From: a virus
Length of the DNA stretch: 64,000 bases
IMG/VR virus record: IMGVR_UViG_3300010883_026915
Span: 1 to 64,000 of that record
Direction: 5' to 3' (one strand)
In this document: positions 3,772 to 24,064 of the stretch, piece by piece
Numbering within the stretch: the first letter of the stretch is position 1
Layout of the letters: each line of letters begins with the position of its first letter
Translations under genes and position numbers: made by a program
Notes under the pieces: model-generated
The model's input: only the letters and a program-made list of their open reading frames with translations
What the model was told of the DNA's origin: nothing
Databases searched by the model: none

Positions 3772-3780
3772 GATAGTTTT

Positions 3781-7759: not shown

Positions 7760-8389
7760 ATGCTATATATTTATGGTGAAAAGCATTGGAATAGTAATGA
7801 TGTTTATAGAAAAAATTTAAGAATTTTAAAAAGATTAAATCTAAATAGAGACTCTATAGTTATCGACGCGGGATTTCATTGCGGTGAAGAACTTCATTAT
7901 TTTAATAATATTGGTAGTATTACTCACGCATTTGAAATAAATAGGTTTCATTGTGAAAACATTTCTGAAATATACAAAGATAATGAAAGAATTAATATTT
8001 ATCAAAAAGCTGTATGGATCGAATATTGTAATATAGATGCATACGAGAAAATAGGAAATCCTCATGCTTCAATGAGTGTTATTTCAGATAAACATAATAT
8101 AGATAAAAATATAAGTTATAAAGTAGAAGCAATAGATCTTTCAGATTTTATTCTTAAGCTTAACAGCCGTGTCAACTTAGTTAAAATGGACATAGAGGGA
8201 GCAGAATATCATGTTATTGAAAAATTAATATATTCAGGTGCAATAGATATGATTGATCTAGTATTATTTGAAGATCATCGGGGGAAAATATCTAAAAAAA
8301 CCAGCCCAGCCTGGCATAGTAAAAGAAAAGAAGTTAAAGCGAAAATTAAAAAATTAAAACTACATGAAAAATTTGGTGATTGGCGGTAG
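7760..8389 (+). CDS. FkbM-family methyltransferase
   Basis: VIDAGFHCG, HAFEIN, KAVW, LVKMDIEGAEY. Start placed at the ATG at 7760, just after the upstream stop. Confidence 0.85.
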   Translation: MLYIYGEKHWNSNDVYRKNLRILKRLNLNRDSIVIDAGFHCGEELHYFNNIGSITHAFEINRFHCENISEIYKDNERINIYQKAVWIEYCNIDAYEKIGNPHASMSVISDKHNIDKNISYKVEAIDLSDFILKLNSRVNLVKMDIEGAEYHVIEKLIYSGAIDMIDLVLFEDHRGKISKKTSPAWHSKRKEVKAKIKKLKLHEKFGDWR

Positions 8390-8423
8390 GTGATTACATA
8401 ATTACTCTATGAGAGGTGATAAT

Positions 8424-9263
8424 ATGGAACCAAAAGAAAAACTTGCTGTGTGTAGTGTTATTAGTAATAGTCATTTAATATATCTTAAAGTTTTTATATA
8501 TTCTATCTTAAGACATAATCCTAAGTTTGATAGAGAGTATGTTGTCTTTTATAAAGATGGAGACATAGCTGAGGTCGACTTTAACCAGTTAAAAAAGATA
8601 TATAAAAATTTTATATTTAAAAAAATACCCACAGAGAAGTATAGAGAAAAAATAGGAGAAACACACGCGAAACAGTCTAAACATTCACAATCAATTAGAC
8701 TGTGGACATACTATAGAATTGAAATGTTCTCACTTATAGAGTATGATCAGATAATATGGTTTGATGTTGATATGCTTGTTATAAACAGCCTAGATGATCT
8801 TTTTAAAATGAGATACAATGAAGGGATTCTTGCCTGCGAAGATATTATTGCAAAGCATATTGTAAAAGATAATAGATATGAAAGAGATCACAAAGTACAA
8901 GGAGGCTTAGTTGTTTTAGGAAAAGATATAATAAGTAGCAATGTGTATAATGATTTGCTAAACTTGCTAAAGCATTCTGACAAATTTAAACTAAATGATC
9001 AATCAATGTTTTCAGAATATTTCGGAAGACAAGGAAAGATAAAGAAATTAAGCATAGTATATAATTGCGGCCAAAAGCTCTACCTAAGAAGACGCGAAAA
9101 TATCAAATTAAATTTAGAAAACACTAAAATAATTCACTTCGCAGGGTCTCAAAAGCCAATGTCTAAAGGCAACCGCCCGGCGAGAAGTGGGTCGCCTCCA
9201 CATAAAATATGGAAAAATTATATGAAAGATATGCTTAGTAAGTATGGATGGAAACAAGGTTGA
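8424..9263 (+). CDS. GT8-family glycosyltransferase
   Basis: YDQIIWFDVDMLV (DxD), NDQS, YN, IIHFAGSQKP. A GAGGTG RBS favours the ATG at 8424 over 8409. Confidence 0.9.
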   Translation: MEPKEKLAVCSVISNSHLIYLKVFIYSILRHNPKFDREYVVFYKDGDIAEVDFNQLKKIYKNFIFKKIPTEKYREKIGETHAKQSKHSQSIRLWTYYRIEMFSLIEYDQIIWFDVDMLVINSLDDLFKMRYNEGILACEDIIAKHIVKDNRYERDHKVQGGLVVLGKDIISSNVYNDLLNLLKHSDKFKLNDQSMFSEYFGRQGKIKKLSIVYNCGQKLYLRRRENIKLNLENTKIIHFAGSQKPMSKGNRPARSGSPPHKIWKNYMKDMLSKYGWKQG

Positions 9264-9270
9264 TTTTTGT

Positions 9271-9303
9271 CATAGATTTATAAAAAACATTTATAAATCT
9301 ATG
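9271..9303. promoter_or_regulatory. Perfect 14-bp inverted repeat (candidate operator or hairpin) upstream of neuB
   Basis: CATAGATTTATAAA-aaaca-TTTATAAATCTATG; the right arm runs into TGGTATCAT (extended -10-like, 9302..9310). Confidence 0.55.
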
Positions 9304-9341
9304 GTATCATGGTTTAATATAAAATTACAAAGAGGAAAAAA

Positions 9342-10178
9342 ATGAATACATTTGTAATAGCAGAAATTGGAATAAACCATAACGGTGATATCGAAATAGC
9401 AAAAAAGCTAATAGACGGAGCATATAAAGCAGGCTGTAATGCTGTAAAGTTTCAAAAAAGAACAATAGATATTGTCTATACACCTGAACAACTAAAGAGT
9501 GAAAGGCAGAGTCCATGGGGTTCAACACATAGAGATCAAAAAGAGGGCCTTGAGTTTGATTTCTCTGAGTATAAGGAGATTGATTTATATTGTAGGTCTT
9601 TAGGTATAGAGTGGTTTGCATCTGCCTGGGATGTTCCTAGTCAGAGATTTCTTTCTAATTTTGATATAAAATATAATAAAATAGCTTCTGCAATGCTAAC
9701 ACATAGAGATCTTTTAATGACAGTGGCAGCTGAGAAAAAGCATACTTTTATTTCTACTGGAATGAGTACTACTGATCAAATATCAAAAGCAATTAAAGTA
9801 TTTGAAAATGCTGGCTGCACTTATGAATTAATGCATTGCAATAGTGAATATCCTATGCCTGCTGAGAAAGCTAATTTAAATGTTATTAATACGCTTAGAG
9901 ATATATTTGATTGTAATGTAGGTTATAGTGGCCATGAAACATGCACAGGAATTAGCCTTGCAGCAGTTGCACTTGGTGCAACATCTATAGAAAGACATAT
10001 AACACTTGATAGATGCATGTATGGTAGTGATCAGGTAGCATCAATAGAAATAAAAAAATTAACATCTCTAGTTAGCGAGATTAGAAAGTTAGAGATTGCT
10101 CTGGGTGATGGTGTAAAAAAAGTAACTGAAAATGAAATCTCAGCAATGAAAAAGCTCAGGATTGTAGACACTCTCTGA
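9342..10178 (+). CDS. neuB: NeuB-family nonulosonate (sialic-acid-type) synthase, short form without the C-terminal SAF/AFP domain
   Basis: IAEIGINHNGD, AVKFQKR, KIASA, ISTGMS, MHCNSEYP, GYSGHE, IERHITLDR...GSD. Confidence 0.95.
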   Translation: MNTFVIAEIGINHNGDIEIAKKLIDGAYKAGCNAVKFQKRTIDIVYTPEQLKSERQSPWGSTHRDQKEGLEFDFSEYKEIDLYCRSLGIEWFASAWDVPSQRFLSNFDIKYNKIASAMLTHRDLLMTVAAEKKHTFISTGMSTTDQISKAIKVFENAGCTYELMHCNSEYPMPAEKANLNVINTLRDIFDCNVGYSGHETCTGISLAAVALGATSIERHITLDRCMYGSDQVASIEIKKLTSLVSEIRKLEIALGDGVKKVTENEISAMKKLRIVDTL

Positions 10179-10179
10179 G

Positions 10180-10899
10180 ATGATTGACAGGTTTAAAATA
10201 CTTGAAGGTAAAAATGTATTAGTAACTGGGGCAACTGGCGGAATAGGATTTTCAATTTGCAAGCTATTTTCATATTTTGGATCTAATGTTTTTGCAACTG
10301 GGAGAAATAAAGACAAGCTTAAATTACTTTCAAGAAGCATTCCAGACATAGTGACATATTGCTCTGATCTTTCTTCACTTAAATCGATTGAAGATTTAAA
10401 TAAAAAAGTATACAAAGATTCATCAGGAATTGATATACTTGTTAATAATGCAGGATTTTTTTCAATAGTCCCTATGGACAAGATTTCAAATATTGAGTAT
10501 AATAAATTTTTTAATATAAATGTAAGAGCTCCAATTCTACTTTCCAGTTTTCACTCTAGTTATATGAAAAATAAATTATGGGGAAGGATATTTAATATAG
10601 GTTCTTCATCTTGTTATAATGGAGGAAAGGATACATCACTTTACTGTTCATCAAAACACGCACTTCTAGGTTTTAGTAAATCGATATCTGATGAATTAAA
10701 AGACTATAATGTGAGAGTTGTGAATCTATCACCAAGTTCCACAAAAACAGATATGGGTAAAGTGCCACTTGTAACACCTCAAGACTATAATACTTTTATA
10801 AATCCAGATGAGATTGCAGAAATGCTAGTATTCCTATGCTGTTTTAATGATAATATGGAAGTTAGAGAGTTACTTTTAAACAGAGTAAGAGTTCAATGA
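10180..10899 (+). CDS. Short-chain dehydrogenase/reductase
   Basis: TGATGGIG, LVNNAG, YCSSK catalytic motif. Confidence 0.92.
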   Translation: MIDRFKILEGKNVLVTGATGGIGFSICKLFSYFGSNVFATGRNKDKLKLLSRSIPDIVTYCSDLSSLKSIEDLNKKVYKDSSGIDILVNNAGFFSIVPMDKISNIEYNKFFNINVRAPILLSSFHSSYMKNKLWGRIFNIGSSSCYNGGKDTSLYCSSKHALLGFSKSISDELKDYNVRVVNLSPSSTKTDMGKVPLVTPQDYNTFINPDEIAEMLVFLCCFNDNMEVRELLLNRVRVQ

Positions 10900-11318
10900 G
10901 TGTAACACTTAGACATATTGGCATTGCTACTGACAAAATTAATGAATCTATTGAGTTTTATTCAAAATTCTTTAATTTTACAATTGTCAATGATAATCAT
11001 GAATCTGGAAATTTTATAAATACAATTCTTGGAAAAAAATGTGAAGTTAGAACAGTAAAAATGACTAATGGAGATTTTATGATAGAGTTTCTACATTTTA
11101 ATTCTTTTCAAAATTCTAAATTTAATATATTCACACTAGGTTGTACACATTTTGCACTAACAGTTAGTGATGTAGACAATATCTTTTCCAGGCTATCTTT
11201 GGAAAATGTAGAGTTCATTAGCAAACCAAAGTTATCAGATACAAAATGTGCAAAAGTATGCTTTTTAAAAGATCCCAATAACAATATTTTTATAGAACTG
11301 GTCGAAGAAATCATATAG
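10896..11318 (+). CDS. VOC/glyoxalase-family protein
   Basis: RHIGIAT...FY, THFALTVSD, FLKDPNNNIFIELVE. Confidence 0.85.
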   Translation: MSVTLRHIGIATDKINESIEFYSKFFNFTIVNDNHESGNFINTILGKKCEVRTVKMTNGDFMIEFLHFNSFQNSKFNIFTLGCTHFALTVSDVDNIFSRLSLENVEFISKPKLSDTKCAKVCFLKDPNNNIFIELVEEII

Positions 11319-11319
11319 C

Positions 11320-12099
11320 ATGAAATTAGGAATAATTCAAGGAAGATTATCACAGCCAGTTCATGGTCATCAAACAACACCTGAAAATTGGCAAAAAGAA
11401 TTTGATATTTTAAAAAAGCTAGGACTGAACCACATAGAGTGGAATATTGACAATAATAAACTTTTTAAAAACCCAATTTTGATATCAGATATAGATTTAA
11501 AAATAATAGAAAAAATTTCCTCTATATGTTTTGATAATTTAGTTACAGATAGAGTATATGATGAAGATTTTTTAAATTTAAACTTGACTAACATTGTTGA
11601 ATTGCTATATACAAAAAATATTTTATCTATAACAATACCATTAGTTGAATCAGCTACTATAAAAAATAGCTCAGATGTATCAAAAATAAGGGCGGCTCTT
11701 GACAATATTTTTGAAAAGTATCCAGAGCTAATAGTCAATATTGAATCTGATGCAAGAATATCTCTTGTATCAGAAGTGCTAGGTTCAAATAAAAATATCA
11801 GATTTACATATGATACTGGTAATATTACAGCATCAAATTTTAATCATGAGAGATACATTGATGCTATTTTTGATAAAATAAATAATATTCATCTTAAAGA
11901 TAGAGTTTATAATCATGGTCCTTCTGTACAATACGGTATGGGAGATACAGATTTTGATGCTATCTTTTCTCAACTTTCAGAATTAAAATATAATAATCTT
12001 TTTACCTTGCAAATGATAAGAGGTGAGACGGGAAAAGAGATGGAATATATTACTGACTTATCTAAAATTTTTAGGAGATTACATGAAAAATATTTTTAG
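11320..12099 (+). CDS. TIM-barrel sugar-phosphate isomerase/epimerase (xylose-isomerase-like fold)
   Basis: MKLGIIQGRLS, HIEW, YDTGN, IHLKDR, GDTDF. Confidence 0.85.
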   Translation: MKLGIIQGRLSQPVHGHQTTPENWQKEFDILKKLGLNHIEWNIDNNKLFKNPILISDIDLKIIEKISSICFDNLVTDRVYDEDFLNLNLTNIVELLYTKNILSITIPLVESATIKNSSDVSKIRAALDNIFEKYPELIVNIESDARISLVSEVLGSNKNIRFTYDTGNITASNFNHERYIDAIFDKINNIHLKDRVYNHGPSVQYGMGDTDFDAIFSQLSELKYNNLFTLQMIRGETGKEMEYITDLSKIFRRLHEKYF

Positions 12100-12901
12100 T
12101 CTAACAGGAAAGGTTGCACTAATAACTGGTGCAGGAGGGCTTCTCGGTCCTAAGCATGCAGAAGCAATACTTGATTATGGCGGAAAGGTAATTTTGACTG
12201 ATCATCATGCTGATCGAGTTAAGGAGAAGGAAGACCAGCTAAATCAAAAATATGGCGAAGGCTCTGCAATTTCATATCACATGGATGTAACAGACCCACA
12301 TTCAGTTAGCACAATTGTTAATCTAGTTGATAGAATAGACATTCTCATTAATAATGCTGCAAAAGATCCCAAAGTGAAAAAAGGCGAAAGTCTAACACCT
12401 TCTAGTAGATTTGAAACAATGACACCAGAATACTGGAATCAAGGTATTGATGCAGCTCTTAACGGAACCTTTTATTGTTCTCAGGCAGTTGCAAATAAAA
12501 TGATATCACAAAGAATAGAAGGTGTGATTCTTAATATAGCTTCTGATCTAGGTGTAATAGCACCCGATCAGAGAATATACAGAAAGCCAGATACACCTGA
12601 AGATATGCAAAATGTAAAGCCGATAACATACTCTGCAGCAAAATGGGCAATTGTAGGAATGACAAAGTACATGGGAGTATATTTCGCTAAGCAGGGAATA
12701 AGAGTCAACTGCCTAAGCCCAACTGGTGTTTATAATGATCATCCGGAAGAATTTGTTAAAAAGTTATCAAATATTATTCCAATGGGAAGAATGGCAGATA
12801 TTAATGAGTACAAAGGAGCAATAGTATTTCTATGCTCAGATGCTAGCTCTTATATGACTGGTGAAAATATGGTTATTGATGGAGGAAAAACAGTATGGTA
12901 G
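12083..12901 (+). CDS. SDR oxidoreductase of the PtmA/flagellin-modification type
   Basis: ITGAGGLLG, LINNAA, YSAAK, IPMGRMA...EYKGAIVFL, DGG. An AGGAG RBS supports the ATG at 12083. Confidence 0.88.
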   Translation: MKNIFSLTGKVALITGAGGLLGPKHAEAILDYGGKVILTDHHADRVKEKEDQLNQKYGEGSAISYHMDVTDPHSVSTIVNLVDRIDILINNAAKDPKVKKGESLTPSSRFETMTPEYWNQGIDAALNGTFYCSQAVANKMISQRIEGVILNIASDLGVIAPDQRIYRKPDTPEDMQNVKPITYSAAKWAIVGMTKYMGVYFAKQGIRVNCLSPTGVYNDHPEEFVKKLSNIIPMGRMADINEYKGAIVFLCSDASSYMTGENMVIDGGKTVW

Positions 12902-13266
12902 ATAAATCAAAACTTCACAGTCCTATCAAATTTGTTAAAAAGGGCTGGGGCTATGAAAAATGGATTGTTAATAAGTCACTTTATTGCGGAAAGCTTTTAT
13001 TTTTCATTTCAGGAAAAAAGTGCTCATGGCACTATCATGTTAATAAAGATGAAGTATTCTATTTACAATCAGGAAGAATGATAGTGCGATATTCAGATGA
13101 GGACTCGCTAGAGACAGCAGAAGAAATTATGCTGGAGCCTGGCATGAATTTCTACATCTATCCTGGATTGAGACATCAAATGGAAGCCCTTGAAAATTCT
13201 GAGCTCTATGAATTTTCAACAGAACACTTTGATGAAGATAGTCATAGAGTTGTAAAAGGCGACTAG
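12895..13266 (+). CDS. Cupin (mannose-6-phosphate isomerase / sugar isomerase-like)
   Basis: KGWGYEKW, SWHYH..KDEVFY, PGLRH cupin metal motifs. Confidence 0.85.
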   Translation: MVDKSKLHSPIKFVKKGWGYEKWIVNKSLYCGKLLFFISGKKCSWHYHVNKDEVFYLQSGRMIVRYSDEDSLETAEEIMLEPGMNFYIYPGLRHQMEALENSELYEFSTEHFDEDSHRVVKGD

Positions 13267-13968
13267 ATGAAAGATATAAAAGATATATGCTTTATAATAC
13301 AGGCAAGACTTAGCTCTGAAAGAGTCCCTAGAAAGATGATGAAACCTTTTGGAGAAACAACACTTGTCGATATAGCATGTAAAAAAATAAATAAATCAAA
13401 AATAATACCGAGAGAAAATTTCTTTTTCTCTGCATATGATAAAGAGATAAAAGATGTAGTAGAAAAAAATAATTTACAAATATTTCATAGAAGCAAAGCT
13501 TCTGCATTTTCTGAAGGACCGATGCAAGAAGTTATGGAATATCATGATAAGCTAAATTTCAAATATTCTGTAGTGATTAGTGCATGCTGCCCAATGCTCT
13601 CTATAGAGTCTATTGATAGTTTTGTTAGGCACTATGTAGATTCTCCGCACGACGGTTTGTTTGCCGTAGTAGAAAAGAAAAATTATTTCTGGGATAGTAG
13701 AATGGAAATGATAACTGAGTGGCCAGATTGTGATGTTCTTAATACAAAAAAAGTAGGAGTAACATATGAGGCAGCACACTGCTTGTATGCTGGGAAAATG
13801 GATACCATAAGATCAGGAATATGGATGGCACCTGTGCCATTTAGTAAAAACAAGCCAGAGCTTTTTGCTATTCCAGAAGATGAAACATTTGATATTGATT
13901 ATAATTGGCAATTTAAAGTTGCAGAATCAATTTATTTAAATGGAATCAAGGATAGCTTTTGTGAATAG
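13267..13968 (+). CDS. NeuA/KdsB-family acylneuraminate cytidylyltransferase
   Basis: IIQARLSSERVPRKMMKPF, CCPML, FDIDY. Confidence 0.85.
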   Translation: MKDIKDICFIIQARLSSERVPRKMMKPFGETTLVDIACKKINKSKIIPRENFFFSAYDKEIKDVVEKNNLQIFHRSKASAFSEGPMQEVMEYHDKLNFKYSVVISACCPMLSIESIDSFVRHYVDSPHDGLFAVVEKKNYFWDSRMEMITEWPDCDVLNTKKVGVTYEAAHCLYAGKMDTIRSGIWMAPVPFSKNKPELFAIPEDETFDIDYNWQFKVAESIYLNGIKDSFCE

Positions 13969-14710
13969 TTTTAAAGATATGAAAGGCTGCTTTAGCGACA
14001 AGAAAGCTCTTATCATTGGAAATGGACCATCACTAGACAATATAGATTTTGATCTATTAAAAGGAGATGACAATATTGTAACTTTTTCTACAAACCAGAT
14101 TGCAGATATTTGTAAAAAAAATATATGGTTTCCAGATTTTTATACTTCTTTTTTCTGTGGACCATTGAGAGGAAGATCATATTCTTTCTCTGATGGAACT
14201 TTAATAAACTACAACGGATCATATGAAAAAGCACTAGAAGCACAAGAGGATATAAAATACATAGTAGAAAATGAAAAAACTACTTGCTTTATTCATGAGT
14301 GGTATCATAAATTTATTTCCAAATCAAATAATACAAGATTTATAAAGCCGCAACTTTGGAATAGACATACACATTTCCCAGAGAATGGATTCGAAAAATT
14401 TAAGATACCTGATAATTTTCTATGGCATAATGCAACAACCCCGCTATTTCAATTATGTTTCTTTTTTGGATTTAAAAAAATTGCTATAATAGGCCAGGAT
14501 GGATATAAAATAGATAGGGAGAATCATTTTTCTAACTATAGAGGTAATGAAGGTACAAATTTTGAACGTGCAAATAGCTCAATAAACTTACTTCACAATG
14601 CTGTCTACTTTTATGCACAAAAAAATAAAATTGATACATTCAACTTGTCAAACATTTCTATATTAAACCAGCATACTAATATTGACCTAGAAAAGTTCGC
14701 AAGTCTATAA
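13940..14710 (+). CDS. Maf/DUF115/GT42-like protein (candidate CMP-nonulosonate transferase)
   Basis: ALIIGNGPSL, FSTN, FFGFKKIAIIGQD, HF..Y, NLS motifs shared with CstII/Maf-type folds. Confidence 0.7.
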   Translation: MESRIAFVNSFKDMKGCFSDKKALIIGNGPSLDNIDFDLLKGDDNIVTFSTNQIADICKKNIWFPDFYTSFFCGPLRGRSYSFSDGTLINYNGSYEKALEAQEDIKYIVENEKTTCFIHEWYHKFISKSNNTRFIKPQLWNRHTHFPENGFEKFKIPDNFLWHNATTPLFQLCFFFGFKKIAIIGQDGYKIDRENHFSNYRGNEGTNFERANSSINLLHNAVYFYAQKNKIDTFNLSNISILNQHTNIDLEKFASL

Positions 14711-14732
14711 GAATAAAGGAGTTATAGGATAA

Positions 14733-15503
14733 ATGTTTAATAGAAATATTTTTCAAGAAATAGATCTTGATAAAGACTACAGAAGTATTATTGAAGGAAA
14801 GACTATTGCAATAGTTGGACCAGCAAGCTATTTAGAGAAATCCAAGCTTGGAAATGAAATAGATAGCCATGATTTAGTAATAAGGATAAACAGGGGTTGC
14901 GAGTTAATAGGTAAATATTCTGAAGATATAGGTGTAAAAACAGATGTACTTTACTCATGCCTAATAGAGAAACCTGAGAATGCAGGAAAGATAGACATAG
15001 ATGCTTTAAAAGAAGACTACGGTATAAAGTATTTATGCACAACACCCCCACCGCAGCAAGACGGTACATCACTTGTTACAGATATACATCCTATGATAGA
15101 TAGAGATAAGTTTAATAAAATTTCAAAATCTATCCCGACAAGAATAGTTGATCATATATTCTGGAGCTCAATTGCTAGAGAGATAAAATCTAGGCCTACT
15201 ACTGGGTATGTTGCAATATTTGACCAAATGAGATTTAATCCTGCAAGTATTTCTGTATATGGCTATAGCTTTTATCTAACAGGAATTTTAAAAGGATATA
15301 AAGATGGAATAGTTGGAACTACAGAGTCTGAATTGTGTGAAAAGTCATTTAAGTCTCAGAGGCACAATCAGGAAAACATGTGGTTATATGCAAAAAAACA
15401 ACTTCTAAAAAACCCAAATGTAAATTTAGATTTAAATCTTTATAATATCCTTAGTATGAAAACTTTTGATAAAAATAATGATATTATAAGCGGTATAATA
15501 TAA
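14733..15503 (+). CDS. GT29-like sialyltransferase
   Basis: Sialylmotif-L-like IAIVGPASYL...GNEIDSHDLVIRINRG...DIGVKTD; motif-S-like PTTG...VYGYSF; C-terminal His (HNQENM). Confidence 0.8.
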   Translation: MFNRNIFQEIDLDKDYRSIIEGKTIAIVGPASYLEKSKLGNEIDSHDLVIRINRGCELIGKYSEDIGVKTDVLYSCLIEKPENAGKIDIDALKEDYGIKYLCTTPPPQQDGTSLVTDIHPMIDRDKFNKISKSIPTRIVDHIFWSSIAREIKSRPTTGYVAIFDQMRFNPASISVYGYSFYLTGILKGYKDGIVGTTESELCEKSFKSQRHNQENMWLYAKKQLLKNPNVNLDLNLYNILSMKTFDKNNDIISGII

Positions 15504-15519
15504 ACTAAAAGGATTTATT

Positions 15520-16125
15520 ATGAATATGAAAATTAATTTTGAAAATATAGAAAAGAGATGTTTTGATGCAATTGCTTCTAGTGAGTATAAAGAGCTAGTA
15601 TTAAAAGTTTCAAAGGCAAAGAGAATCTTTTTGCTTGGAAATGGTGGTCTGCACTTTGTAGCTAGCCACATGGCAACAGATCTTTCAAGATTAATACCCG
15701 ATAAATCTGTATATTCTTTTGATAGTGTTGGGTTTATTACTTCAAATGCAAATGATCATGGATTTGAACAACTTTTTGTCAGGTGGCTGGAGACAATAGC
15801 ATCTATTGAAAATCCGGAAGAGTGCCTTGTAATAGGAATGTCATGTTCTGGAAATTCTTCAAATGTTATTAATGCTCTTCATTGGGCAAGTGATAGAAGC
15901 ATAGATACATTTATGGTATCTGGGCAGAAGTCAGATATACTTAGACAGTGTGTCTCTGAAATGAGTTTTGAATGTGAGTATTTTCACACAGTAGAAGTCA
16001 TGTGTATGATTATATTTTATGATCTCATTCATCAGACAGATAACAAGTGTCCATCAATAAGAGGCGAAAAAGCTAGACTTAAAGATTCATCATTACGAGG
16101 TGCAATTGAGTCAAAAGAAGAGTAG
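15520..16125 (+). CDS. SIS-domain sugar-phosphate isomerase (GmhA-like)
   Basis: LGNGG...ASHMATD, TSNANDHGFEQLF, MSCSGNSSNV. Confidence 0.82.
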   Translation: MNMKINFENIEKRCFDAIASSEYKELVLKVSKAKRIFLLGNGGLHFVASHMATDLSRLIPDKSVYSFDSVGFITSNANDHGFEQLFVRWLETIASIENPEECLVIGMSCSGNSSNVINALHWASDRSIDTFMVSGQKSDILRQCVSEMSFECEYFHTVEVMCMIIFYDLIHQTDNKCPSIRGEKARLKDSSLRGAIESKEE

Positions 16126-17245
16126 TATAGAAAAAGTTATAATGATACCAGCTCGTGCCGGTAGCAAGAGAATTAAGAAAAAAAACATTAGGCTTCTTAG
16201 TGGCAAGCCGCTTATATCATATGCTATTAAGGCTTCCCTAGAGACAGGGCTTAAGGTTTATGTAAATTCTGACTGTGAAGTTATTCTAAAGCTAGCTGCG
16301 GATATGGGATGTATACCGTATAGAAGAGATGACTCACTATGCACAGACTTTTCTACAAATGATGAGTTTATGAATGACTTTATAGATAATATAAAATCAG
16401 AGTATGTTTTACAGATTCTTCCAACGTCGCCGTTTATAACAAGAGATGAAATATTAAATTTTTCAAAAGAGATGAATAATTTTGATACACTTATTTCAGT
16501 TAAGGATGCACAGATTGGATGTGTATATAATAGTAACCCTGTAAACTTTGACAAAACTAAGCAAAACCCGCCTTCACAGGAAATAGAGCCAGTAAAGATA
16601 TATGCAACGTCTTTAATGGGATGGAAATGTTCAACATTTAAAGATAATATGTCAATGTTTGGTTGTGCATATCATGGCGGAAGTAAAAATACTGGATATT
16701 TTACACTTACAGGATGGTCTACTGTAGATATAGATAATGAGTCTGATTTTATGATTGCTGAGTCTATAGCACAGATGATACCATTTGAAAAATTATACAA
16801 GCCATCATATCATGAACCAGAAACTTATTCTGACGATTTTGTTCCAAGGGTTTTAAAACAAGACGGAATACATGATGGAAATCCATCAACACCAAATAAA
16901 AACATAATATCAGTTACAAATCTTATGAATAGTGGAGTTGATAAAAGTGCATGGTATCATACCCTTGTAGATACTGAGAATAATTCATGTACTCTAATAA
17001 ACCAGATGCCTGGTGAGGGAAATAGACGTCATTACCATGCAAAATGGAATGAGTGGTGGTATATTCTTAGGGGAGAGTGGAAATTTGAAATAGGCGACGA
17101 TATTCACAAAGTAAAATCTGGTGATCTTGTTTTTATAGAAAAGGGCCACCGCCATAAAATAACTGCAGCTGGAGATAAAATTGCATCAAGGCTTGCTGTA
17201 TCCAGATATGATGTAGAGCACATATATAGAAAAGATGAAATATGA
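16100..17245 (+). CDS. neuA: NeuA-type cytidylyltransferase fused to a C-terminal cupin
   Basis: IPARAGSKRIKKKNIRLL, PTSPF, VDIDNESDF; cupin HYH...EWWY...G..W...H. The start may be the TTG at 16106. Confidence 0.85.
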   Translation: MQLSQKKSSIEKVIMIPARAGSKRIKKKNIRLLSGKPLISYAIKASLETGLKVYVNSDCEVILKLAADMGCIPYRRDDSLCTDFSTNDEFMNDFIDNIKSEYVLQILPTSPFITRDEILNFSKEMNNFDTLISVKDAQIGCVYNSNPVNFDKTKQNPPSQEIEPVKIYATSLMGWKCSTFKDNMSMFGCAYHGGSKNTGYFTLTGWSTVDIDNESDFMIAESIAQMIPFEKLYKPSYHEPETYSDDFVPRVLKQDGIHDGNPSTPNKNIISVTNLMNSGVDKSAWYHTLVDTENNSCTLINQMPGEGNRRHYHAKWNEWWYILRGEWKFEIGDDIHKVKSGDLVFIEKGHRHKITAAGDKIASRLAVSRYDVEHIYRKDEI

Positions 17246-17952
17246 AAATAGATTATTTGGGAAAAAAAGTTCTTGTAACTGGTGGAACTAGGGGAATTGG
17301 AAAAAGCCTTGTTGATAATTTTAAAAATCTCGGCGCAAGTGTCTGGTATACAGGAAGAAAACTAGACTTAAATGAAAAAGGTTATATTCAGGTAGATTTT
17401 TCAAAAAAACGTCAAATGGAAAAATTTCTTAAAAAAATAGCAAGTATTGACTTTGACGTTGTAATAAACAATGCGGGTACAAACAAAATTGGACCAATTG
17501 AAGAGTATAGTGAAAATGACTATAGCTTGATTATTGATTTAAATCTAACATCATGTTTTAAGATAATGAAAGCTGTCATTCCGGGAATGAAGGCAAGGGG
17601 TTACGGAAGAATAGTTAACATTACATCTATATCTAGTGAGATTAGTATGCCACTGAGAACAGCTTATTGCTCAAGTAAGTTTGGACTAGTTGGGTTAACA
17701 AAAGCAGCTGCAGTAGAATCTGCAAGACATGGAATTCTTATAAACTCCGTGGGACCGGGAGTTACAGAAACTGAATTAACAGTAGATATTCTCGGAAAAG
17801 ATAAGATGGCTGAAATAGCTAAAAATATTCCGGCAGGAAGGCTAGCATGTGTTCAAGATATAGCATCTACTGTAATGTTTGTCGCTAGTGATCTTAATTC
17901 TTATATTGTAGGTCAAAATATTCTTGTTGACGGAGGTTACACGTGTGTCTAG
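17242..17952 (+). CDS. Short-chain dehydrogenase/reductase (FabG-like)
   Basis: TGGTRGIG, NNAG, YCSSK, GQNILVDGG. Confidence 0.92.
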   Translation: MKIDYLGKKVLVTGGTRGIGKSLVDNFKNLGASVWYTGRKLDLNEKGYIQVDFSKKRQMEKFLKKIASIDFDVVINNAGTNKIGPIEEYSENDYSLIIDLNLTSCFKIMKAVIPGMKARGYGRIVNITSISSEISMPLRTAYCSSKFGLVGLTKAAAVESARHGILINSVGPGVTETELTVDILGKDKMAEIAKNIPAGRLACVQDIASTVMFVASDLNSYIVGQNILVDGGYTCV

Positions 17953-19027
17953 TATAATATCAATTAAATCGTATATTGGTAAGTACACTGTATCTGTATA
18001 TGATACAGAGCAATGTAAAAATGCACGATCTCAAGCTCTAGAAAAGCTTTCTTGTAATACTTTTTTAGTAATTGATAGAAAGGTAGCTAGTCTATATCCA
18101 GAGATTACTGAATACTGGAGTGATAATAACATTCATAAAATAGATGCTCTTGAATCAAATAAAGAGCTAGCGACATGCGAAATTTTATTAAAAAAATTAA
18201 ATGATGCTTCTTTTAAAAAAAATATGAAATTAGTTGCAATTGGCGGCGGAATTATACAGGATATTACTTCGTTTACAGCTTCAATATTATATAGAGGTGT
18301 TGATTGGATTTTTATACCTACAACACTTTTGGCCCAGGCAGATAGTTGTATCGGCAGCAAAACTTCTATTAATTTTAATGGAGCTAAAAATATTTTAGGA
18401 AATTTCTACCCACCTATGGAGGTTTACTGTTTTACGGATTTTCTTAGCTCACTGTCTAAGAATGATATAAAAAGCGGAATAGGAGAAATATTACACTATT
18501 ATATTGTCGACAATAGTCAGCATTCTAAAGAAATTATAAGAGATTATGATAAAATTCTAGAAAATCCTGGAGTAATATATTCTCACATTTTAGAAAGTCT
18601 GTCAATTAAAAAGAGAATGATTGAAATAGATGAGTTTGATAAAAAACAGCGAAGGATTTTTAATTATGGACATACTTTTGGGCATGCAATAGAGGTGTTA
18701 AGTGACTTTAAAATCTCACACGGACAGGCTGTCACACTGGGCATGGATATTGCAAACTTTGTTTCATTCTCACTGGGGATGATACCGATCGAGAGATATA
18801 AATCTTTATGTGAGATTTTATCAAAAAATATTCCTATCTTTAGAATAGAAAGTAAAAAAATAGATGATTTTATTAGACTGCTTCAAAAAGATAAAAAAAG
18901 TATAAAGGACAATATTGTTTGTATACTTCCTGTTGGAGATAGTGATGTATCAGTTATAACAATTTCACATATTGATACATTAAGATCTCTAATAAAAGAG
19001 TATACAATGCTAAGTGTAGAGATTTGA
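17945..19027 (+). CDS. AroB/3-dehydroquinate-synthase-related sugar-phosphate cyclase
   Basis: AIGGGIIQD, PTTLLAQADSCIGSKT, KN..G.FYPP, SGIGE, NYGHTFGHAIE, HGQAV, DKK. The GTG at 17945 follows GGAGG (the ORF track starts at 17924). Confidence 0.88.
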   Translation: MSSIISIKSYIGKYTVSVYDTEQCKNARSQALEKLSCNTFLVIDRKVASLYPEITEYWSDNNIHKIDALESNKELATCEILLKKLNDASFKKNMKLVAIGGGIIQDITSFTASILYRGVDWIFIPTTLLAQADSCIGSKTSINFNGAKNILGNFYPPMEVYCFTDFLSSLSKNDIKSGIGEILHYYIVDNSQHSKEIIRDYDKILENPGVIYSHILESLSIKKRMIEIDEFDKKQRRIFNYGHTFGHAIEVLSDFKISHGQAVTLGMDIANFVSFSLGMIPIERYKSLCEILSKNIPIFRIESKKIDDFIRLLQKDKKSIKDNIVCILPVGDSDVSVITISHIDTLRSLIKEYTMLSVEI

Positions 19028-19341
19028 TGAAAGTTTATGTAGACATAGATGAGACAATATGCTATTATGATGGATTGCGAGAATATGAGCTTGCTATCCC
19101 AATTAGGAAAAATATTAAAAAAGTTAACAAGCTCTTTGAAGAAGGTCATGAGATAACATACTGGACAGCAAGAGGATCTACAACAGGAATTGACTGGTAC
19201 AATATTACAAAAGATCAGTTAGAAAAATGGAATTGCAAGTATCACATATTAAGTGTGGGTGAAAAACCAGATTACGATATTTTAATATGTGATAAAGCAC
19301 ACAACTCAAAATCTTTTTTTAGCAACTTAGACGACGGATAA
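19024..19341 (+). CDS. Small capless HAD-superfamily phosphatase
   Basis: VDIDETIC (DxDxT), WTARG, KP.YD...DK. Confidence 0.85.
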   Translation: MMKVYVDIDETICYYDGLREYELAIPIRKNIKKVNKLFEEGHEITYWTARGSTTGIDWYNITKDQLEKWNCKYHILSVGEKPDYDILICDKAHNSKSFFSNLDDG

Positions 19342-19344
19342 AAC

Positions 19345-20103
19345 ATGCTATATAATAATATTAATGATTTTAAATCAAAATATGCTATCTTTAAATCAAA
19401 ATACGAAAATAATGATACATTTGAATCAACTGATCTATGTACAATATTAGACTCTAACAGGTCAGATAAATCATACCCTAGCGATTCAAAAGATAGGATT
19501 GATGATTATACAGAGCTTGTTCTAAAGAAAAAGAGATCTTTTCACAATTATTCTCTGTTCTATCATGAGTTTTTTTCACATATTAGAGAGGACAACATGT
19601 CAATATTTGAAGTAGGCCTGGGAAGTAATAATAGCGATGTTCGAGGGTTTATGGGAAATGATGCAAGACCTGGTGCATCTCTATATGCATGGTCAGAATA
19701 CTTTAAAAATGGAAGGATATACGGTGCTGATATTGATAAAAGAATAATATTTAATGACGATAACAAAAGAATAAAGACATACTGTTTTGATCAAGCAAAT
19801 AGAGATAGTGTAAGAAGAGCTTTTGATGAAATTGGTCACAAAGTTGATATTATAATAGATGACGGATTACACTTTCCAGAATACAATATGAAATTTTTTG
19901 AAAATTCATTTCAATATTTGGAAGAGGGCGGACTTTTTATAATAGAAGATTTGTTTTTGGCAAGACATACAACAAAAAACTTTAATAAACAACACAAGAG
20001 AAATCTAGAAAAAATAAGAGGTACATGTAGATTTGCAGATATACTAACACTAAAGTCTACATTTAATAAGAAAGATAATAACCTAATGGTGATTTTAAAA
20101 TGA
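19345..20103 (+). CDS. Class I SAM-dependent methyltransferase (sugar O-methyltransferase-like)
   Basis: SDK...HNY, FEVGLG, GASL..W..YF, YGADID, DQ, DIIIDDGLH, GGLFIIED. Confidence 0.8.
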   Translation: MLYNNINDFKSKYAIFKSKYENNDTFESTDLCTILDSNRSDKSYPSDSKDRIDDYTELVLKKKRSFHNYSLFYHEFFSHIREDNMSIFEVGLGSNNSDVRGFMGNDARPGASLYAWSEYFKNGRIYGADIDKRIIFNDDNKRIKTYCFDQANRDSVRRAFDEIGHKVDIIIDDGLHFPEYNMKFFENSFQYLEEGGLFIIEDLFLARHTTKNFNKQHKRNLEKIRGTCRFADILTLKSTFNKKDNNLMVILK

Positions 20104-21002
20104 AAAATGTAGTAGTTACAGGTGGTGCTGGGTTCATAGGATCAAATTTAGTAAAAGAACTTATTAAAATAGACATAAATGTAAAAATAATAGATGACTT
20201 TTCAAGCGGAAAAAGATCAAACATACCAAAGAGCAAAAATATTCATGTATGGAATCAGGATATATCAGATGCATCTGCAGAAGATCTTTTAAGCTTTATG
20301 AAAGACGTCGATGTTGTCTTTCACATGGCAGCAAGAGCACGAGTACAACCGTCTATTGATGATCCAGTGCCATTTAACAAGGCTAATGTTGATTCTACAC
20401 TAAAGATACTTGTTGCTGCAAAAGACTCAAATGTCAAAAGAGTTGTATATAGTGCTAGTAGTTCATGCTATGGTGATACAAAAATAATACCAACACCTGA
20501 GACAGCAGCTAAAAACCCTCTATCACCATATGGTCTTCAGAAATATATAGGCGAGCAATATTGTAAACTATTTAGTGAAATTTATGATATAGATACAGTT
20601 TCATTAAGATATTTTAACATATATGGAAGCGGAATGTCTAGCGATGGTGCATATTCTCTAGTTCTTGCAATATGGAAAAAACAATTCAATGAAGGCTACC
20701 CATTAACAATAACAAACGACGGAAATCAAAGAAGAGACTTTACACATGTAGATGATGTTATTAGTGCAAACATTCTTGCAGCAACATCTAAGAATAATTT
20801 TAAAGGCAAGTCATATAATATTGGAAATGGAAGATCCCTATCTATGAATGAAGTTTCAGATATGATAGGTGGAAAAGTAATATATTGTGAGAATAGAATG
20901 GAACCATTTGAAACATGTGCTGATAATACTAGTGCTATAAAAGATCTAGGGTGGAATCCAACAGGAAGTTTAAGTAATTTTATTAATAAGAATTTTAAAT
21001 GA
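20100..21002 (+). CDS. NAD-dependent nucleotide-sugar epimerase/dehydratase
   Basis: TGGAGFIGS, SPYGLQK, LRYFNIYG, RDFTHVDD. Confidence 0.93.
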   Translation: MKNVVVTGGAGFIGSNLVKELIKIDINVKIIDDFSSGKRSNIPKSKNIHVWNQDISDASAEDLLSFMKDVDVVFHMAARARVQPSIDDPVPFNKANVDSTLKILVAAKDSNVKRVVYSASSSCYGDTKIIPTPETAAKNPLSPYGLQKYIGEQYCKLFSEIYDIDTVSLRYFNIYGSGMSSDGAYSLVLAIWKKQFNEGYPLTITNDGNQRRDFTHVDDVISANILAATSKNNFKGKSYNIGNGRSLSMNEVSDMIGGKVIYCENRMEPFETCADNTSAIKDLGWNPTGSLSNFINKNFK

Positions 21003-21976
21003 GTAGTCTAATAGTATCAAGAACACCCTTGAGAATAAGTTTAATAGGTGGTGGAAGTGATCTATATTCTTACTATTCAAAAGCTGGGTTTGGAAAAGTA
21101 ATAAGTGTAACTATTGACAAGTATATATACATAACTGCCCACAGTAGATACGACGGATTAATAAGAGCAAGCTATTCCAAAACAGAAATTGAAAAAAATG
21201 TAAGCGAGATAAAGCACGATCTAATAAGAGAATCAATGAATCTATTGAGAATAGAATCAGGTATAGAAGTTACCTCTATATCAGACGTAACTGCATATGG
21301 TACAGGTTTGGGGTCTTCTAGCGCGTATACTGCTGGTGTACTAAATGCTTTATCAAATCTATGTGGAAAAAAATATAGTAGATTCAATCTTGCAAATGAC
21401 GCGTGCATTGTGGAAATTGAAAAATGCATGCAGCCAATAGGAAAACAAGATCAATTTTCATCAGTTTTTGGAGGACTAAATGAGATTAAATTTACAAACA
21501 ATAATGTATTTGTAAGTGAGATCAATACAAGTTCAGAAAATTTAGATAATCTATCAGAAAATTTATTATTATTTGACACAGGAATAAAAAGAAAAGCTTC
21601 TACAATATTAGCAAGACAGAAAAAAGGATATGAAAACAATAAATTAGAAATAACAAGAAAACTAGTAGATTTAGTCCCACTAATGAAAAATGCTATAGTC
21701 GAAGACATAAGCCTTGTTGGAGAGATACTTGACGAAAGCTGGAATATAAAAAAAACAGTAACTAGTGGAATATCTAATGATATAATAGACGAGTATTATA
21801 AGATAGCAATGAAAAATGGAGCATCTGGTGGAAAGCTCTGCGGCGCTGGCGGTGGCGGCTTTTTGCTTTTTTATGCAAATAAAAAAGATCATAAAAGATT
21901 GAGAAGTGCACTATGCAATATGAAAGAATTAAATTTTAAATTTGACTATGGGGGAGCAAAAATATTATGCAGCTAG
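20999..21976 (+). CDS. hddA: GHMP kinase, D-glycero-D-manno-heptose-7-phosphate 1-kinase-like
   Basis: RTPLRISLIGGGSD, GTGLGSSS, GKQDQ...FGG, GGKLCGAGGGGF. Confidence 0.88.
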   Translation: MSSLIVSRTPLRISLIGGGSDLYSYYSKAGFGKVISVTIDKYIYITAHSRYDGLIRASYSKTEIEKNVSEIKHDLIRESMNLLRIESGIEVTSISDVTAYGTGLGSSSAYTAGVLNALSNLCGKKYSRFNLANDACIVEIEKCMQPIGKQDQFSSVFGGLNEIKFTNNNVFVSEINTSSENLDNLSENLLLFDTGIKRKASTILARQKKGYENNKLEITRKLVDLVPLMKNAIVEDISLVGEILDESWNIKKTVTSGISNDIIDEYYKIAMKNGASGGKLCGAGGGGFLLFYANKKDHKRLRSALCNMKELNFKFDYGGAKILCS

Positions 21977-22461
21977 ATAGGCTAAAGCTTGAAATAGATA
22001 ATATAAAATCATATGTAGGCAAGCTAACAAATCTAGTTGAGTCTCATGATAGAGTTATAATAATAGGGAATGGTGGAAGTAACTCTATTGCATCTCATAT
22101 ATCACAGGATTACACAAAAGCTTTGGGAAAAAATGCAATATGCTTCTCAGATCCTTCAAGACTTACATGCTATATTAACGATTACGGAATGAAAAATGCA
22201 TATAGAGTTTTTATAGAAGAATTTTCAACAAAAGACACACTAGTAATTGCAATATCATCCTCTGGTAATTCTGACAATATAATAAATGCTGTTAAATATT
22301 GCAATAAAAATAACATAAAGACTGTTACCCTTTCCGGATTCGAAAAAGATAATAAGCTTAATATGCTAGACAGCGAAATTAATTACTGGGTAGACTCTAG
22401 AGATTATGGTGTTATTGAATGCGCACATCTTGTATTTCTTCATTCTATAATAAAATATTAG
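21967..22461 (+). CDS. gmhA: SIS-domain phosphoheptose isomerase-like protein
   Basis: IGNGGSNSIASH, TCYINDYG, ISSSGNSDNI, YGVIECAH; adjacent to hddA. Confidence 0.8.
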   Translation: MQLDRLKLEIDNIKSYVGKLTNLVESHDRVIIIGNGGSNSIASHISQDYTKALGKNAICFSDPSRLTCYINDYGMKNAYRVFIEEFSTKDTLVIAISSSGNSDNIINAVKYCNKNNIKTVTLSGFEKDNKLNMLDSEINYWVDSRDYGVIECAHLVFLHSIIKY

Positions 22462-22467
22462 GAAAAA

Positions 22468-22773
22468 ATGAGAATATTTGTAGATATCGATGGAACTATT
22501 TGTAAAACATTAAAAGATGATGGAGCTTGGGATTATAGGAATTCAAAGCCTATCCATACAAATATTGAAAAAATAAATAAGCTGAAGGCTGATGGCAATG
22601 AGATAGTTTATTGGACTGCAAGAGGTAGTACTTCTGGAATAGACTGGCATGATTTTACACATAATCAGCTTATGCTGTGGGGTTGTTTATTTGATGATCT
22701 TATATGTGGCAAAAAAAAGGGAGCCTTTGATATGATAATTGATGATAAAGCAAAGAGAATTGAAGAGATATGA
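22468..22773 (+). CDS. Small capless HAD phosphatase (paralogue of 19024..19341)
   Basis: VDIDGTIC, YWTARGSTSGIDW, IDDKA. Confidence 0.85.
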   Translation: MRIFVDIDGTICKTLKDDGAWDYRNSKPIHTNIEKINKLKADGNEIVYWTARGSTSGIDWHDFTHNQLMLWGCLFDDLICGKKKGAFDMIIDDKAKRIEEI

Positions 22774-24063: not shown

Positions 24064-24064
24064 T

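Follow-up and report, generated by a model that had tools for sequence, protein, structure and literature searches.

An AroB-like enzyme may stand in for a phosphatase in one of two adjacent phage gene modules predicted to make CMP-linked ulosonic sugars

Why does a phage carry, within a single gene island, a NeuB-family synthase and a relative of the shikimate enzyme AroB (dehydroquinate synthase, DHQS), and do the two serve one pathway? The genes lie at 9342-19341 of an 80-kb IMG/VR record of an uncultured marine phage, a fragment that is 16 % complete by CheckV and from which our window takes 64,000 nucleotides; all are on the + strand and for the most part overlap. A sequence-only reading of this stretch had proposed that NeuB condenses phosphoenolpyruvate (PEP) with an aldose phosphate, and that the AroB-like enzyme cyclises the product to a carbocyclic unit. 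Every gene that it listed was recovered, each in its place on the + strand, but the list had omitted two transferase genes, one MptE/Maf-like (13940-14710) and one GT29-like (14733-15503). Its HAD phosphatase was identified by DxDxT, T-A-R-G-S, K and CD motifs and by a paralogue at 22468-22773 of the same record, although no Pfam profile matched it. Comparison with more than 200 related loci divides the stretch into two separate modules, A (9342-14710) and B (14733-19341), whose genes, together with one that follows, are given below.

Module A
9342..10178, +, SAF-less NeuB-family PEP-condensing synthase, 278 aa (PF03102, 238 bits, residues 23-259)
10180..10899, +, SDR oxidoreductase (adh_short, 140 bits)
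10896..11318, +, VOC/glyoxalase-fold protein (PF00903, 2.6e-11)
11320..12099, +, xylose-isomerase-like TIM barrel of the sugar/sugar-phosphate epimerase/isomerase type (PF01261, AP_endonuc_2, 1.5e-9), with weak L-ribulose-5-P 3-epimerase-like matches
12023..12901, +, SDR, PRK09186-like (adh_short_C2, 139 bits; NF006619, 163 bits); real start probably near 12100
12895..13266, +, small cupin (Cupin_2, 1.2e-7)
13267..13968, +, CMP-transferase no. 1 (CTP_transf_3, PF02348, 7e-14), with weak PseF and KdsB matches
13940..14710, +, MptE/Maf-like (DUF115) putative CMP-sugar transferase (PF01973, 1.1e-9)
Module B
14733..15503, +, GT29-like transferase with sialyltransferase motif L (PF00777, 2.3e-13, residues 24-74)
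15520..16125, +, SIS-domain sugar-phosphate isomerase, weakly GmhA-like (TIGR00441, 56.6 bits, cut-off 209)
16100..17245, +, CMP-transferase no. 2 with C-terminal cupin, one fused protein (CTP_transf_3, 1.3e-16; Cupin_2, 3.8e-13; PseF, 82 bits)
17242..17952, +, SDR, partner of the AroB-like enzyme (adh_short_C2, 166 bits)
17924..19027, +, AroB-like NAD/metal enzyme, TIGR04425-type (DHQ_synthase N- and C-terminal domains)
19024..19341, +, minimal HAD-type phosphatase, 105 aa (DIDET, WTARGS, K and CD motifs)
Downstream
19345..20103, +, probable class I SAM-dependent methyltransferase, tailoring (ESM Atlas)

The last of these has no Pfam or NCBIfam match, and its call comes from an ESM Atlas feature score of 0.97 and TM values of 0.73-0.79 to methyltransferase clusters; as a possible tailoring enzyme it is a lead only, its belonging to the module being uncertain. 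The same record also holds a heptose module at 20999-24063.

The gene neighbourhoods of relatives speak for two modules. The phage NeuB, in which a Pfam profile search finds no SAF domain, scores under the NeuB and PseI equivalog cut-offs, and among solved structures its nearest relative is 6ncs, a short NeuB of 290 aa; its metal and PEP motifs are intact. It has 27 viral relatives and 323 matches in GTDB species genomes, the best 80 of the 323 being 52-64 % identical. Over 77 long loci, the partners of short NeuB are the TIM barrel (adjoining it in 40 loci), the SDR of 12023 (8/19 viral loci, at 69 % identity, and 33/58 bacterial loci), the cupin (7/19 viral loci, 68 % identity), CMP-transferase, HAD (homologues of the one at 19024 occur in 10 of the 19 viral loci), SIS and DegT proteins, while the VOC gene adjoins it in 12 loci. 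An AroB-like gene is found near short NeuB in none of the 19 viral and in one of the 58 bacterial NeuB loci. It travels with the SDR, the CMP-transferase-cupin, SIS and the GT29-like gene in seven and about 13 further phage loci, NeuB in none of them, and five other phage records bearing the AroB-like module are without NeuB. NeuB and the AroB-like enzyme are thus no conserved pair, and the proposed single route from one to the other is not supported. In Module B, the SIS protein, the best conserved, is 61-85 % identical to those of other phage modules, the CMP-transferase-cupin is 40-58 % identical across 12 further phage loci, GT29-like orthologues lie within the AroB-like module of other phages, the SDR of the 17242 cluster stands directly upstream of the AroB-like gene in 17/20 viral and 28/34 mixed loci, and the HAD gene, translationally coupled to the AroB-like gene, has homologues in Module B of three other phage contigs (L160, L164 and L166).

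The Kdn/Kdo-type logic suggested earlier for the NeuB block is supported, as isomerase, PEP synthase, HAD phosphatase and CMP-transferase are all there. Both the CMP-Kdo pathway (KdsD/KdsA/KdsC/KdsB) and the CMP-Kdn pathway (Man-6-P, Kdn-9-P synthase, HAD phosphatase, CMP-Kdn synthetase) likewise run from an isomerase through PEP or pyruvate condensation, phosphate removal and CMP activation to transfer, and the CMP-transferase of related bacterial cassettes scores above the KdsB subfamily cut-off (NF009905, 263 vs 255 bits). Unlike these pathways, the 80-kb phage record has no KdsA, its NeuB lacks the SAF domain that in NeuB contacts ManNAc (PMC8208679), its modules add redox and cupin tailoring genes, and the Module B phosphate is proposed to be removed by the AroB-like enzyme and SDR, with no hydrolase. 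With the Neu5Ac, legionaminic and pseudaminic acid pathways the phage shares a NeuB-family synthase, a CTP_transf_3 activator and Maf- or sialyltransferase-type transferases, but nowhere in the 80 kb of this fragment is there a match to DegT, Aminotran_1_2, _3 or _4, to Epimerase_2 (NeuC), Hexapep or GNAT, nor a PseB/C- or LegB/C-type dehydratase or aminotransferase or an N-acetyltransferase. The lack of amino-sugar genes pointed out for 9342-19341 therefore extends across the record, and supports the view that both gene sets, as carried there, would be nitrogen-free.

What, then, is the AroB-like enzyme? It has the same fold and both Pfam domains of AroB (EC 4.2.3.4; TIGR01357; PDB 3CLH, 1DQS), and the NAD-, metal-, phosphate- and carboxylate-binding residues are all conserved; however, its gene sits in glycan cassettes, not near shikimate genes. 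Against the aroB model TIGR01357 it reaches 245 bits (cut-off 305), whereas its best-scoring family, over the full length, is TIGR04425, at 399.2 bits only 0.8 short of the cut-off of 400. In the tree, the AroB-like clade stands apart from AroB (branch 2.52, support 99/100), and five of five bacterial carrier genomes examined also possess their own aroB above cut-off, of which it is a paralogue. From this score, the separate clade and the resident aroB genes we conclude that the enzyme is not a canonical AroB, as had been suspected of the cyclase before. TIGR04425, named 'AroB-related putative sugar phosphate phospholyase (cyclizing)', is a hypothetical equivalog whose function has not been defined experimentally, and we found no paper in the literature that mentions the family.

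In the alignment, every DHQS substrate and catalytic residue is kept: R130, D146, K152, N162, E194, K250, R264, N268, H271, H275, H287 and K356 are invariant in 34/34 proteins of the AroB-like set, one of which (L025) the tree later put with canonical AroB. Two active-site positions do vary from DHQS, with L267F in all 34 proteins and K197H in 26. K250 and R264 are, we presume from the A. nidulans DHQS-carbaphosphonate structure, the carboxylate binders of DHQS. Since the binders of DAHP carboxylate and phosphate are retained, a PEP- or pyruvate-derived ulosonate phosphate, as assumed in the sequence-only reading, is a reasonable candidate substrate, and because the pocket is fully DHQS-like this would most likely be a seven-carbon, DAHP-like one. 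The other sugar phosphate cyclases (DOIS BtrC, EEVS ValA, DDGS, EVS, EboD) belong to the same superfamily but are far in sequence, and EEVS/EboD-like paralogues from the same bacterial genomes, to which this comparison was confined, have K250H, R264A, N268D and K356Q/R in place of the carboxylate and phosphate binders kept here. Such cyclases are also found outside the shikimate pathway, at times beside aminotransferases (PMC5133447).

Gene exchanges in two sets of closely related cassettes, from phages and from Bacteroidota respectively, bear on function. In the phage set, the contigs L161 and L164 share 93-94 % DNA identity to either side of a slot that holds an SDR and AroB-like gene (1754 nt) in L161 and a HAD of about 103 aa (340 nt) in L164, and their CMP-transferases are 95 % and their aminotransferases 97 % identical; L166, which bears a HAD too, has a GT29-like protein that shares 70 % identity with its L161 counterpart. 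In the Bacteroidota set, the slot that L183 and L185 fill with SDR and AroB-like genes is taken in L188 by an IMPase-family phosphatase (PDB 5zhh, 9e-34), and the flanking proteins are 65-77 % identical. The exchange is not strictly exclusive, as the HAD gene and the SDR and AroB-like pair are both present in the stretch under study and in L160. Most likely, to judge from these comparisons, the AroB-like enzyme stands in for an ordinary phosphatase in Module B. Retention of the GT29-like transferase in cassettes with and without the AroB-like gene argues for an activated product that can be transferred as a glycosyl donor.

We tentatively favour, at somewhat less than even confidence, a reading in which two independent modules would each make, activate and transfer a CMP-linked 2-ulosonic (sialic-acid- or Kdo-like) sugar, with Module B working by phosphate elimination and ketoreduction; we found no published work on this cassette in the literature. 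In Module A, the SAF-less NeuB would join a sugar phosphate to PEP, a minimal HAD phosphatase would remove the phosphate, and the SDRs, VOC protein, TIM barrel and cupin would tailor the product before CMP activation and passage to the Maf-like transferase. The analysis itself shows the gene identities, the division into two modules, the separate clade, the conserved residues and the phosphatase exchanges, while substrate, step order, deoxy product and glycan target we infer. In Module B, the AroB-like enzyme would apply DHQS chemistry to a phosphorylated 2-keto sugar acid, oxidising it with NAD+ beside the acidic C-H, expelling the terminal phosphate by beta-elimination and then re-reducing, and the adjacent SDR would reduce the new ketone, leaving a terminal methyl group. 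The SDR and AroB-like pair would so replace the phosphatase step and yield a terminal-deoxy ulosonic acid, to be activated by the CMP-transferase-cupin and transferred by the GT29-like enzyme. Since no enzyme that forms C-C bonds is encoded in Module B of the phage, its substrate would have to be supplied by the host or by Module A; were it host DAHP, the highly conserved SIS protein would have no evident role.

After phosphate elimination from DAHP, the enol-pyranose closes to a carbocycle spontaneously, as known from Bartlett and Knowles-era DHQS work, so a deoxy sugar would need interception. We consider the carbocycle of the earlier reading unlikely; in it, the enzyme would carry a DAHP-like ulosonate phosphate through the complete DHQS reaction to a dehydroquinate-type ring, which the SDR would turn into a quinate-like acid whose tertiary C1-OH beside the carboxylate mimics the Kdo/sialic acid anomeric centre and is CMP-activated. 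Retention of all catalytic and substrate residues, ring closure as the chemical default, a class III aminotransferase directly after the enzyme in sister phages, as in aminocyclitol pathways, and the 'cyclizing' in the family name all agree with it. However, without a ring oxygen the product is not an ordinary glycosyl donor for a GT29-type enzyme, yet GT29-like genes are co-conserved, and the family-wide L267F and K197H could change the late steps. That closely related cassettes exchange SDR and AroB-like genes for a plain phosphatase, yet keep an orthologous CMP-transferase (95 % identical between L161 and L164) and GT29-like protein (70 % in L166), implies very similar products; it weakens the carbocycle and is a better fit to a deoxy sugar than to an oxygen-free ring.

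Rather improbable is an earlier action of the pair, on a SIS-made aldose 6- or 7-phosphate, by DOIS-like first steps without ring closure; the free terminal-deoxy aldose would then be condensed by NeuB (phage) or an HpcH aldolase (bacteria) to a 9-deoxy nitrogen-free nonulosonic acid, linking the modules in the order B to A. NeuB does lie 8 kb upstream in this phage, class II pyruvate aldolases usually accept unphosphorylated aldehydes, and in bacteria GFO, SIS and either SDR plus AroB-like or IMPase form an optional sub-block on a constant core of HpcH aldolase and KdsB-like genes (56/60 loci), as expected of an acceptor-supply branch. Yet invariant K250 and R264 (34/34) would not be expected if the substrate were a neutral aldose phosphate, most Module B phages have neither NeuB nor aldolase on their contigs, and in known ulosonate pathways phosphate is removed after condensation.

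We hold it very unlikely that the enzyme is an EVS/EEVS-like sedoheptulose-7-phosphate cyclase making a C7 cyclitol that, once reduced, would be attached as a pseudo-sugar. The substrates that CTP_transf_3 enzymes are known to activate are 2-keto acids rather than neutral cyclitols. GmhA-like SIS genes and the heptose module do place sedoheptulose-7-P chemistry nearby, and EVS enzymes are reported to be DHQS-like in trees (PMC5133447), but K250, R264, N268 and K356 are lost in the EEVS/EboD-like paralogues and kept here, and solved EEVS (1e-23) and DDGS (1e-19) are far more distant matches than DHQS (5e-48). Least of all do we credit an ordinary DHQS, an auxiliary metabolic gene boosting host aromatic amino-acid synthesis in an incidental glycan setting, for despite a fully DHQS-like active site and an aroB match of 2e-74, it scores under the aroB cut-off in a distinct clade, invariably lies inside a glycan cassette alongside an SDR and a CMP-transferase, is interchangeable with phosphatases, occurs in bacteria that already own aroB, and has no further shikimate gene among the island ORFs scanned.

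If the two-module reading with phosphate elimination is right, the phage would make both sugars, presumably decorating its own or its host's surface.

Across 34 viral loci, 27 of which were added with the CMP-transferase-cupin and SIS genes as anchors, these two genes form the constant part of the cassette, usually together with a GT29-like gene and a class III (LAT-like) aminotransferase, and the SDR (17242-17952 in the window) and the AroB-like gene (17924-19027) are gained or missing as a pair. Cassettes with and without the AroB-like gene are intermixed in the CMP-transferase tree. Near-isogenic blocks are shared by the phage loci L164 and L161, where positions 1-2467 and 2808-5929 of the former correspond to 8353-10819 and 12574-15695 of the latter with DNA identities of 93.7% and 93.4%, respectively. 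Between these blocks, L161 encodes the SDR and the AroB-like enzyme (10820-12573, 1754 nt), and the same slot of L164 (2468-2807, 340 nt) holds a minimal HAD phosphatase of ~103 aa, a clean replacement. A further phage locus, L166, has the HAD gene as in L164, with a GT29-like protein and a CMP-transferase 70% and 73% identical to those of L161. We rejected the idea that the HAD and the pair never occur together, as both are present in phage locus L160 and in the window. In the window and in phage loci L156 and L157 the aminotransferase is absent, which represents a nitrogen-free version of this cassette, hereafter Module B.

A comparable exchange was found in bacteria, where the constant core consists of a KdsB-like CMP-transferase and an HpcH/HpaI aldolase (56 of 60 loci), and an optional sub-block of GFO/IDH/MocA, SIS, SDR and AroB-like genes occurs in 11 loci. 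In L188, a Pedobacter MAG, a protein of the inositol-monophosphatase family (PDB 5zhh, 9e-34) is encoded between the SIS gene and the one after it (11432-12178), the place taken by the SDR and the AroB-like gene in two Bacteroidota loci (L183 and L185) whose flanking proteins are 65-77% identical. Because phosphatases of two unrelated families occupy the place of the pair, one in each of two lineages, we conclude that the pair would act as the phosphate-removal step.

What kind of enzyme is the AroB-like protein? It contains both DHQ-synthase domains (Pfam) and scores 245.4 bits against the AroB model TIGR01357, below its 305-bit equivalog cut-off, and 399.2 bits against TIGR04425 (model positions 1-345 of 348; cut-off 400), a family named 'AroB-related putative sugar phosphate phospholyase (cyclizing)'. 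Its closest solved relatives are bacterial DHQS structures (3CLH, 4.8e-48), with DOIS, EEVS and DDGS much weaker, and bacterial homologues from the common cassette are 36-54% identical to it and fall into the same clade. The phylogeny of the cyclase, which the sequence-only reading had called for, placed 24 bacterial and 8 viral members in a single clade that a long branch (2.52, support 99/100) sets apart from canonical AroB in a maximum-likelihood tree; bacterial locus L025, fetched as an AroB-like relative, proved to be a plain aroB in that tree. Furthermore, all five bacterial carrier genomes tested encode an additional canonical aroB above the cut-off. The protein keeps the DHQS residues; it differs from AroB in scoring below the cut-off, in lying outside the AroB clade and, in the five genomes tested, in standing beside another aroB. 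Viral copies occupy two positions in the tree (L035/L036, and L030-L034 plus the window), one of these groups adjoining Gamma- and Deltaproteobacterial copies, an indication that phages acquired the gene at least twice. Among GenBank phages (INPHARED) there was no close homologue, the matches of ~30% identity being canonical aroB or bacterial contamination. Literature searches returned no relevant work on TIGR04425 or DHQS-like enzymes in polysaccharide clusters, nor on HpcH plus cytidylyltransferase or caryophyllose plus dehydroquinate.

Twelve DHQS positions (catalytic, metal-, NAD-, phosphate- and carboxylate-binding), whose roles we take to be those in the A. nidulans structure, are invariant, both in the window protein and throughout the 34-protein alignment, L025 included. 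The change L267F is common to 34/34 of the aligned proteins and K197H to 26/34, including all viral members. By comparison, two of the genomes concerned also encode EEVS/EboD-like third paralogues, which carry K250H, R264A, N268D and K356Q/R, and these positions are therefore free to vary with substrate. The AroB-like family keeps K250, R264, N268 and K356, and so lacks the departures from DHQS at carboxylate and phosphate binders expected of EEVS, DDGS and DOIS, the comparison being with the in-genome EEVS/EboD-like paralogues. Taken as a whole, these findings favour a DAHP-like substrate, probably a 2-keto acid that is phosphorylated at its terminus. In this respect we agree with the sequence-only reading, which had proposed an ulosonate phosphate, with sedoheptulose-7-P as an alternative.

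That reading had also assumed a single pathway in which the product of the short NeuB is passed to the AroB-like enzyme, and this part was not supported. We clustered the neighbouring genes of AroB-like relatives (26 bacterial and 7 viral loci) and of NeuB relatives (27 viral loci and 80 of 323 bacterial matches). According to Pfam, the short NeuB is recurrently accompanied by a TIM barrel, an SDR of the 12023 type, a cupin, a CMP-transferase, KdsC-like or minimal HAD phosphatases, SIS and VOC proteins, and frequently by a DegT or ThDP enzyme. The co-occurrence of NeuB and AroB-like genes, proposed as a check, turned out to be rare, with an AroB-like gene near the short NeuB in 0/19 long viral and 1/58 long bacterial NeuB loci. 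Instead, the AroB-like gene directly follows an SDR in 17/20 viral and 28/34 mixed loci, its other companions being the CMP-transferase(-cupin), the SIS protein and the GT29-like transferase, and no NeuB was found in five other phage records bearing Module B. From these neighbourhoods we therefore divide the region into Module A (9342-14710, with the short NeuB) and Module B (14733-19341, with the pair), each equipped with a separate CMP-transferase and a separate transferase. The gene types named before were all borne out by Pfam and NCBIfam at the positions given for them, and two transferases missing from that list lie between the two CMP-transferases. Features of the co-oriented glycan island (1154-28982) are as follows.

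Features of the glycan island, in window coordinates
13940: MptE/Maf-like transferase, newly listed
14733: GT29-like transferase, newly listed
19024-19341: 'HAD phosphatase' without family match, with DxDxT, T-A-R-G-S, K and CD motifs; paralogue at 22468-22773
19345-20103: ORF of 252 aa without Pfam or NCBIfam match, resembling class I SAM methyltransferases in ESM Atlas features (0.97) and in structure (TM up to 0.79)
20100-24958: epimerase, HddA-like GHMP kinase, GmhA, second minimal HAD (GmhB-like position), short NDP-sugar dehydrogenase, TagD/RfaE-II-like nucleotidyltransferase, second epimerase
24961: sulfotransferase, next after the preceding module

Downstream of Module B, the genes at 20100-24958 form a third module, for a nucleotide-heptose. 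Its HddA-like GHMP kinase scores 144 bits against NF049969, below the cut-off. Its NDP-sugar dehydrogenase (22770-23651, 293 aa) covers model positions 68-297 of 413; the C-terminal domain and the first part of the NAD domain are absent, and the enzyme may be truncated or split. Further along the island, a PD-(D/E)XK (Cas4-like) nuclease gene (25644-26495) is flanked by the sulfotransferase and two GT4 genes. In sister phage islands, the AroB-like module is accompanied by a split transketolase, with its N-terminal and pyrimidine-binding halves on different ORFs, and by a B12-binding radical SAM enzyme (L030:1117-2227 and L030:5355-7073), which hints that a sugar undergoes C-branching or C-methylation.

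The record is 80,014 bp long, is rated 16% complete by CheckV, and is represented by its first 64 kb in the window; the G+C content is ~31%. Its viral origin is assigned on account of the IMG/VR classification and of baseplate-type genes downstream of the island, namely a baseplate wedge subunit, the only virion protein named by PHROGs, and weak gp25 and Baseplate_J matches (Pfam). The reported absence of amino-sugar genes extended to the whole 80-kb record at this 16% completeness, where we found no DegT, no aminotransferase of classes I/II, III or IV, no NeuC-type epimerase and no hexapeptide or GNAT acetyltransferase; within the same limits, the gene set for Leg, Pse or Neu5Ac (NeuC-type 2-epimerase or PseB/LegB dehydratase, DegT and N-acetyltransferase) had no match.

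The NeuB of Module A (9342-10178, 278 aa) consists of the NeuB domain alone (PF03102, 238 bits over the full domain), and its metal and PEP motifs align with those of solved NeuB and PseI structures. It scores below the NCBIfam equivalogs for both NeuB (260.5 bits, cut-off 399.65) and PseI (183.7 bits, cut-off 340.25). The protein stops at residue 278 with no match to an SAF (antifreeze-like) domain and lacks the substrate-contacting arginine of that domain. Among solved structures it is closest to 6ncs, a short NeuB of 290 aa determined by structural genomics. SAF-less NeuBs are described as environmental, uncharacterised proteins (PMC8208679). Cassettes of the SIS-HAD-NeuB-VOC-TIM-SDR-SDR-CMP-transferase type recur in Gammaproteobacteria and in Methanoregula (L090, L107). 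With a sugar-phosphate isomerase, a NeuB-type synthase, a HAD phosphatase and a CMP-synthetase, the Kdn-type gene content is complete, and the record has no amino-sugar genes; judged by its genes, Module A would most naturally be read as a route of Kdn/Kdo type that starts from a sugar phosphate. Its second SDR, taken as the longest ORF from 12023, overlaps the TIM-barrel gene by 77 nt (12023-12099), and the Pfam match starts at residue 30, so that the true start is probably further downstream.

How, then, might Module B remove phosphate? Dehydroquinate synthase oxidises its substrate, eliminates phosphate by beta-elimination and re-reduces the product. The AroB-like enzyme would perform the same oxidation, elimination and re-reduction, the resulting ketone would then be reduced by the SDR, and interception ahead of the aldol step would yield a terminal-deoxy ulosonic acid that is still a true glycosyl donor. 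We favour this reading tentatively, at slightly below an even chance; since the deoxy acid would remain a true donor, it would account for the near-identical CMP-transferases and orthologous GT29-like enzymes found in both cassette types. A chain of C7 fits the unchanged pocket, and C9 or C10 acids would be chemically possible. The main rival holds that the ring closes to a quinate-like carbocycle, which has in its favour that the DAHP-derived enol-pyranose closes spontaneously; we regard it as rather unlikely. A fuller version, in which this phage and many bacteria make a CMP-activated, quinate-type carbocyclic mimic of Kdo or sialic acid, is marginally more doubtful still; such a mimic would either reach a glycan through an unusual form of pseudo-glycosyl transfer or block host CMP-sugar transferases as a dead-end inhibitor. 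Kdo-8-P was rejected as a substrate by reasoning, as beta-elimination of the C8 phosphate needs a carbonyl at C6, which in the pyranose form bears the ring oxygen and has no oxidisable hydroxyl.

In phages, Module B encodes an SIS protein and no condensing enzyme. The record of L035, one of the five phage records without NeuB, contains a 268-aa DAHP_synth_1 protein (KdsA or class I-beta DAHP synthase; G010:C1:51150-51884) just past the fetched locus, ~11 kb downstream of the AroB-like gene, and this protein could be the substrate supplier. Overall, the observations from sequence are confirmed and their interpretation is supported in part, for a DAHP-like substrate but not for a single NeuB-to-AroB route; the system is, as predicted from its genes, an uncharacterised variant of CMP-ulosonate pathways in which a putatively repurposed dehydroquinate synthase homologue provides the unusual step.

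If this is true, dehydroquinate synthase would have a second, widespread role as a phosphate lyase acting on sugar acids, an AroB-like lyase would stand in for the phosphatase of CMP-ulosonic-acid pathways, and the hypothetical family TIGR04425 would gain a function. Terminal-deoxy acidic sugars would then arise without a nucleotide-sugar 4,6-dehydratase and would make up a class of sialic-acid-like sugars, on the surfaces of bacteria and perhaps also of phages, that has yet to be described. Marine T4-like phages with two such modules would be relevant to the question of virion glycosylation versus remodelling of the host surface by phages.
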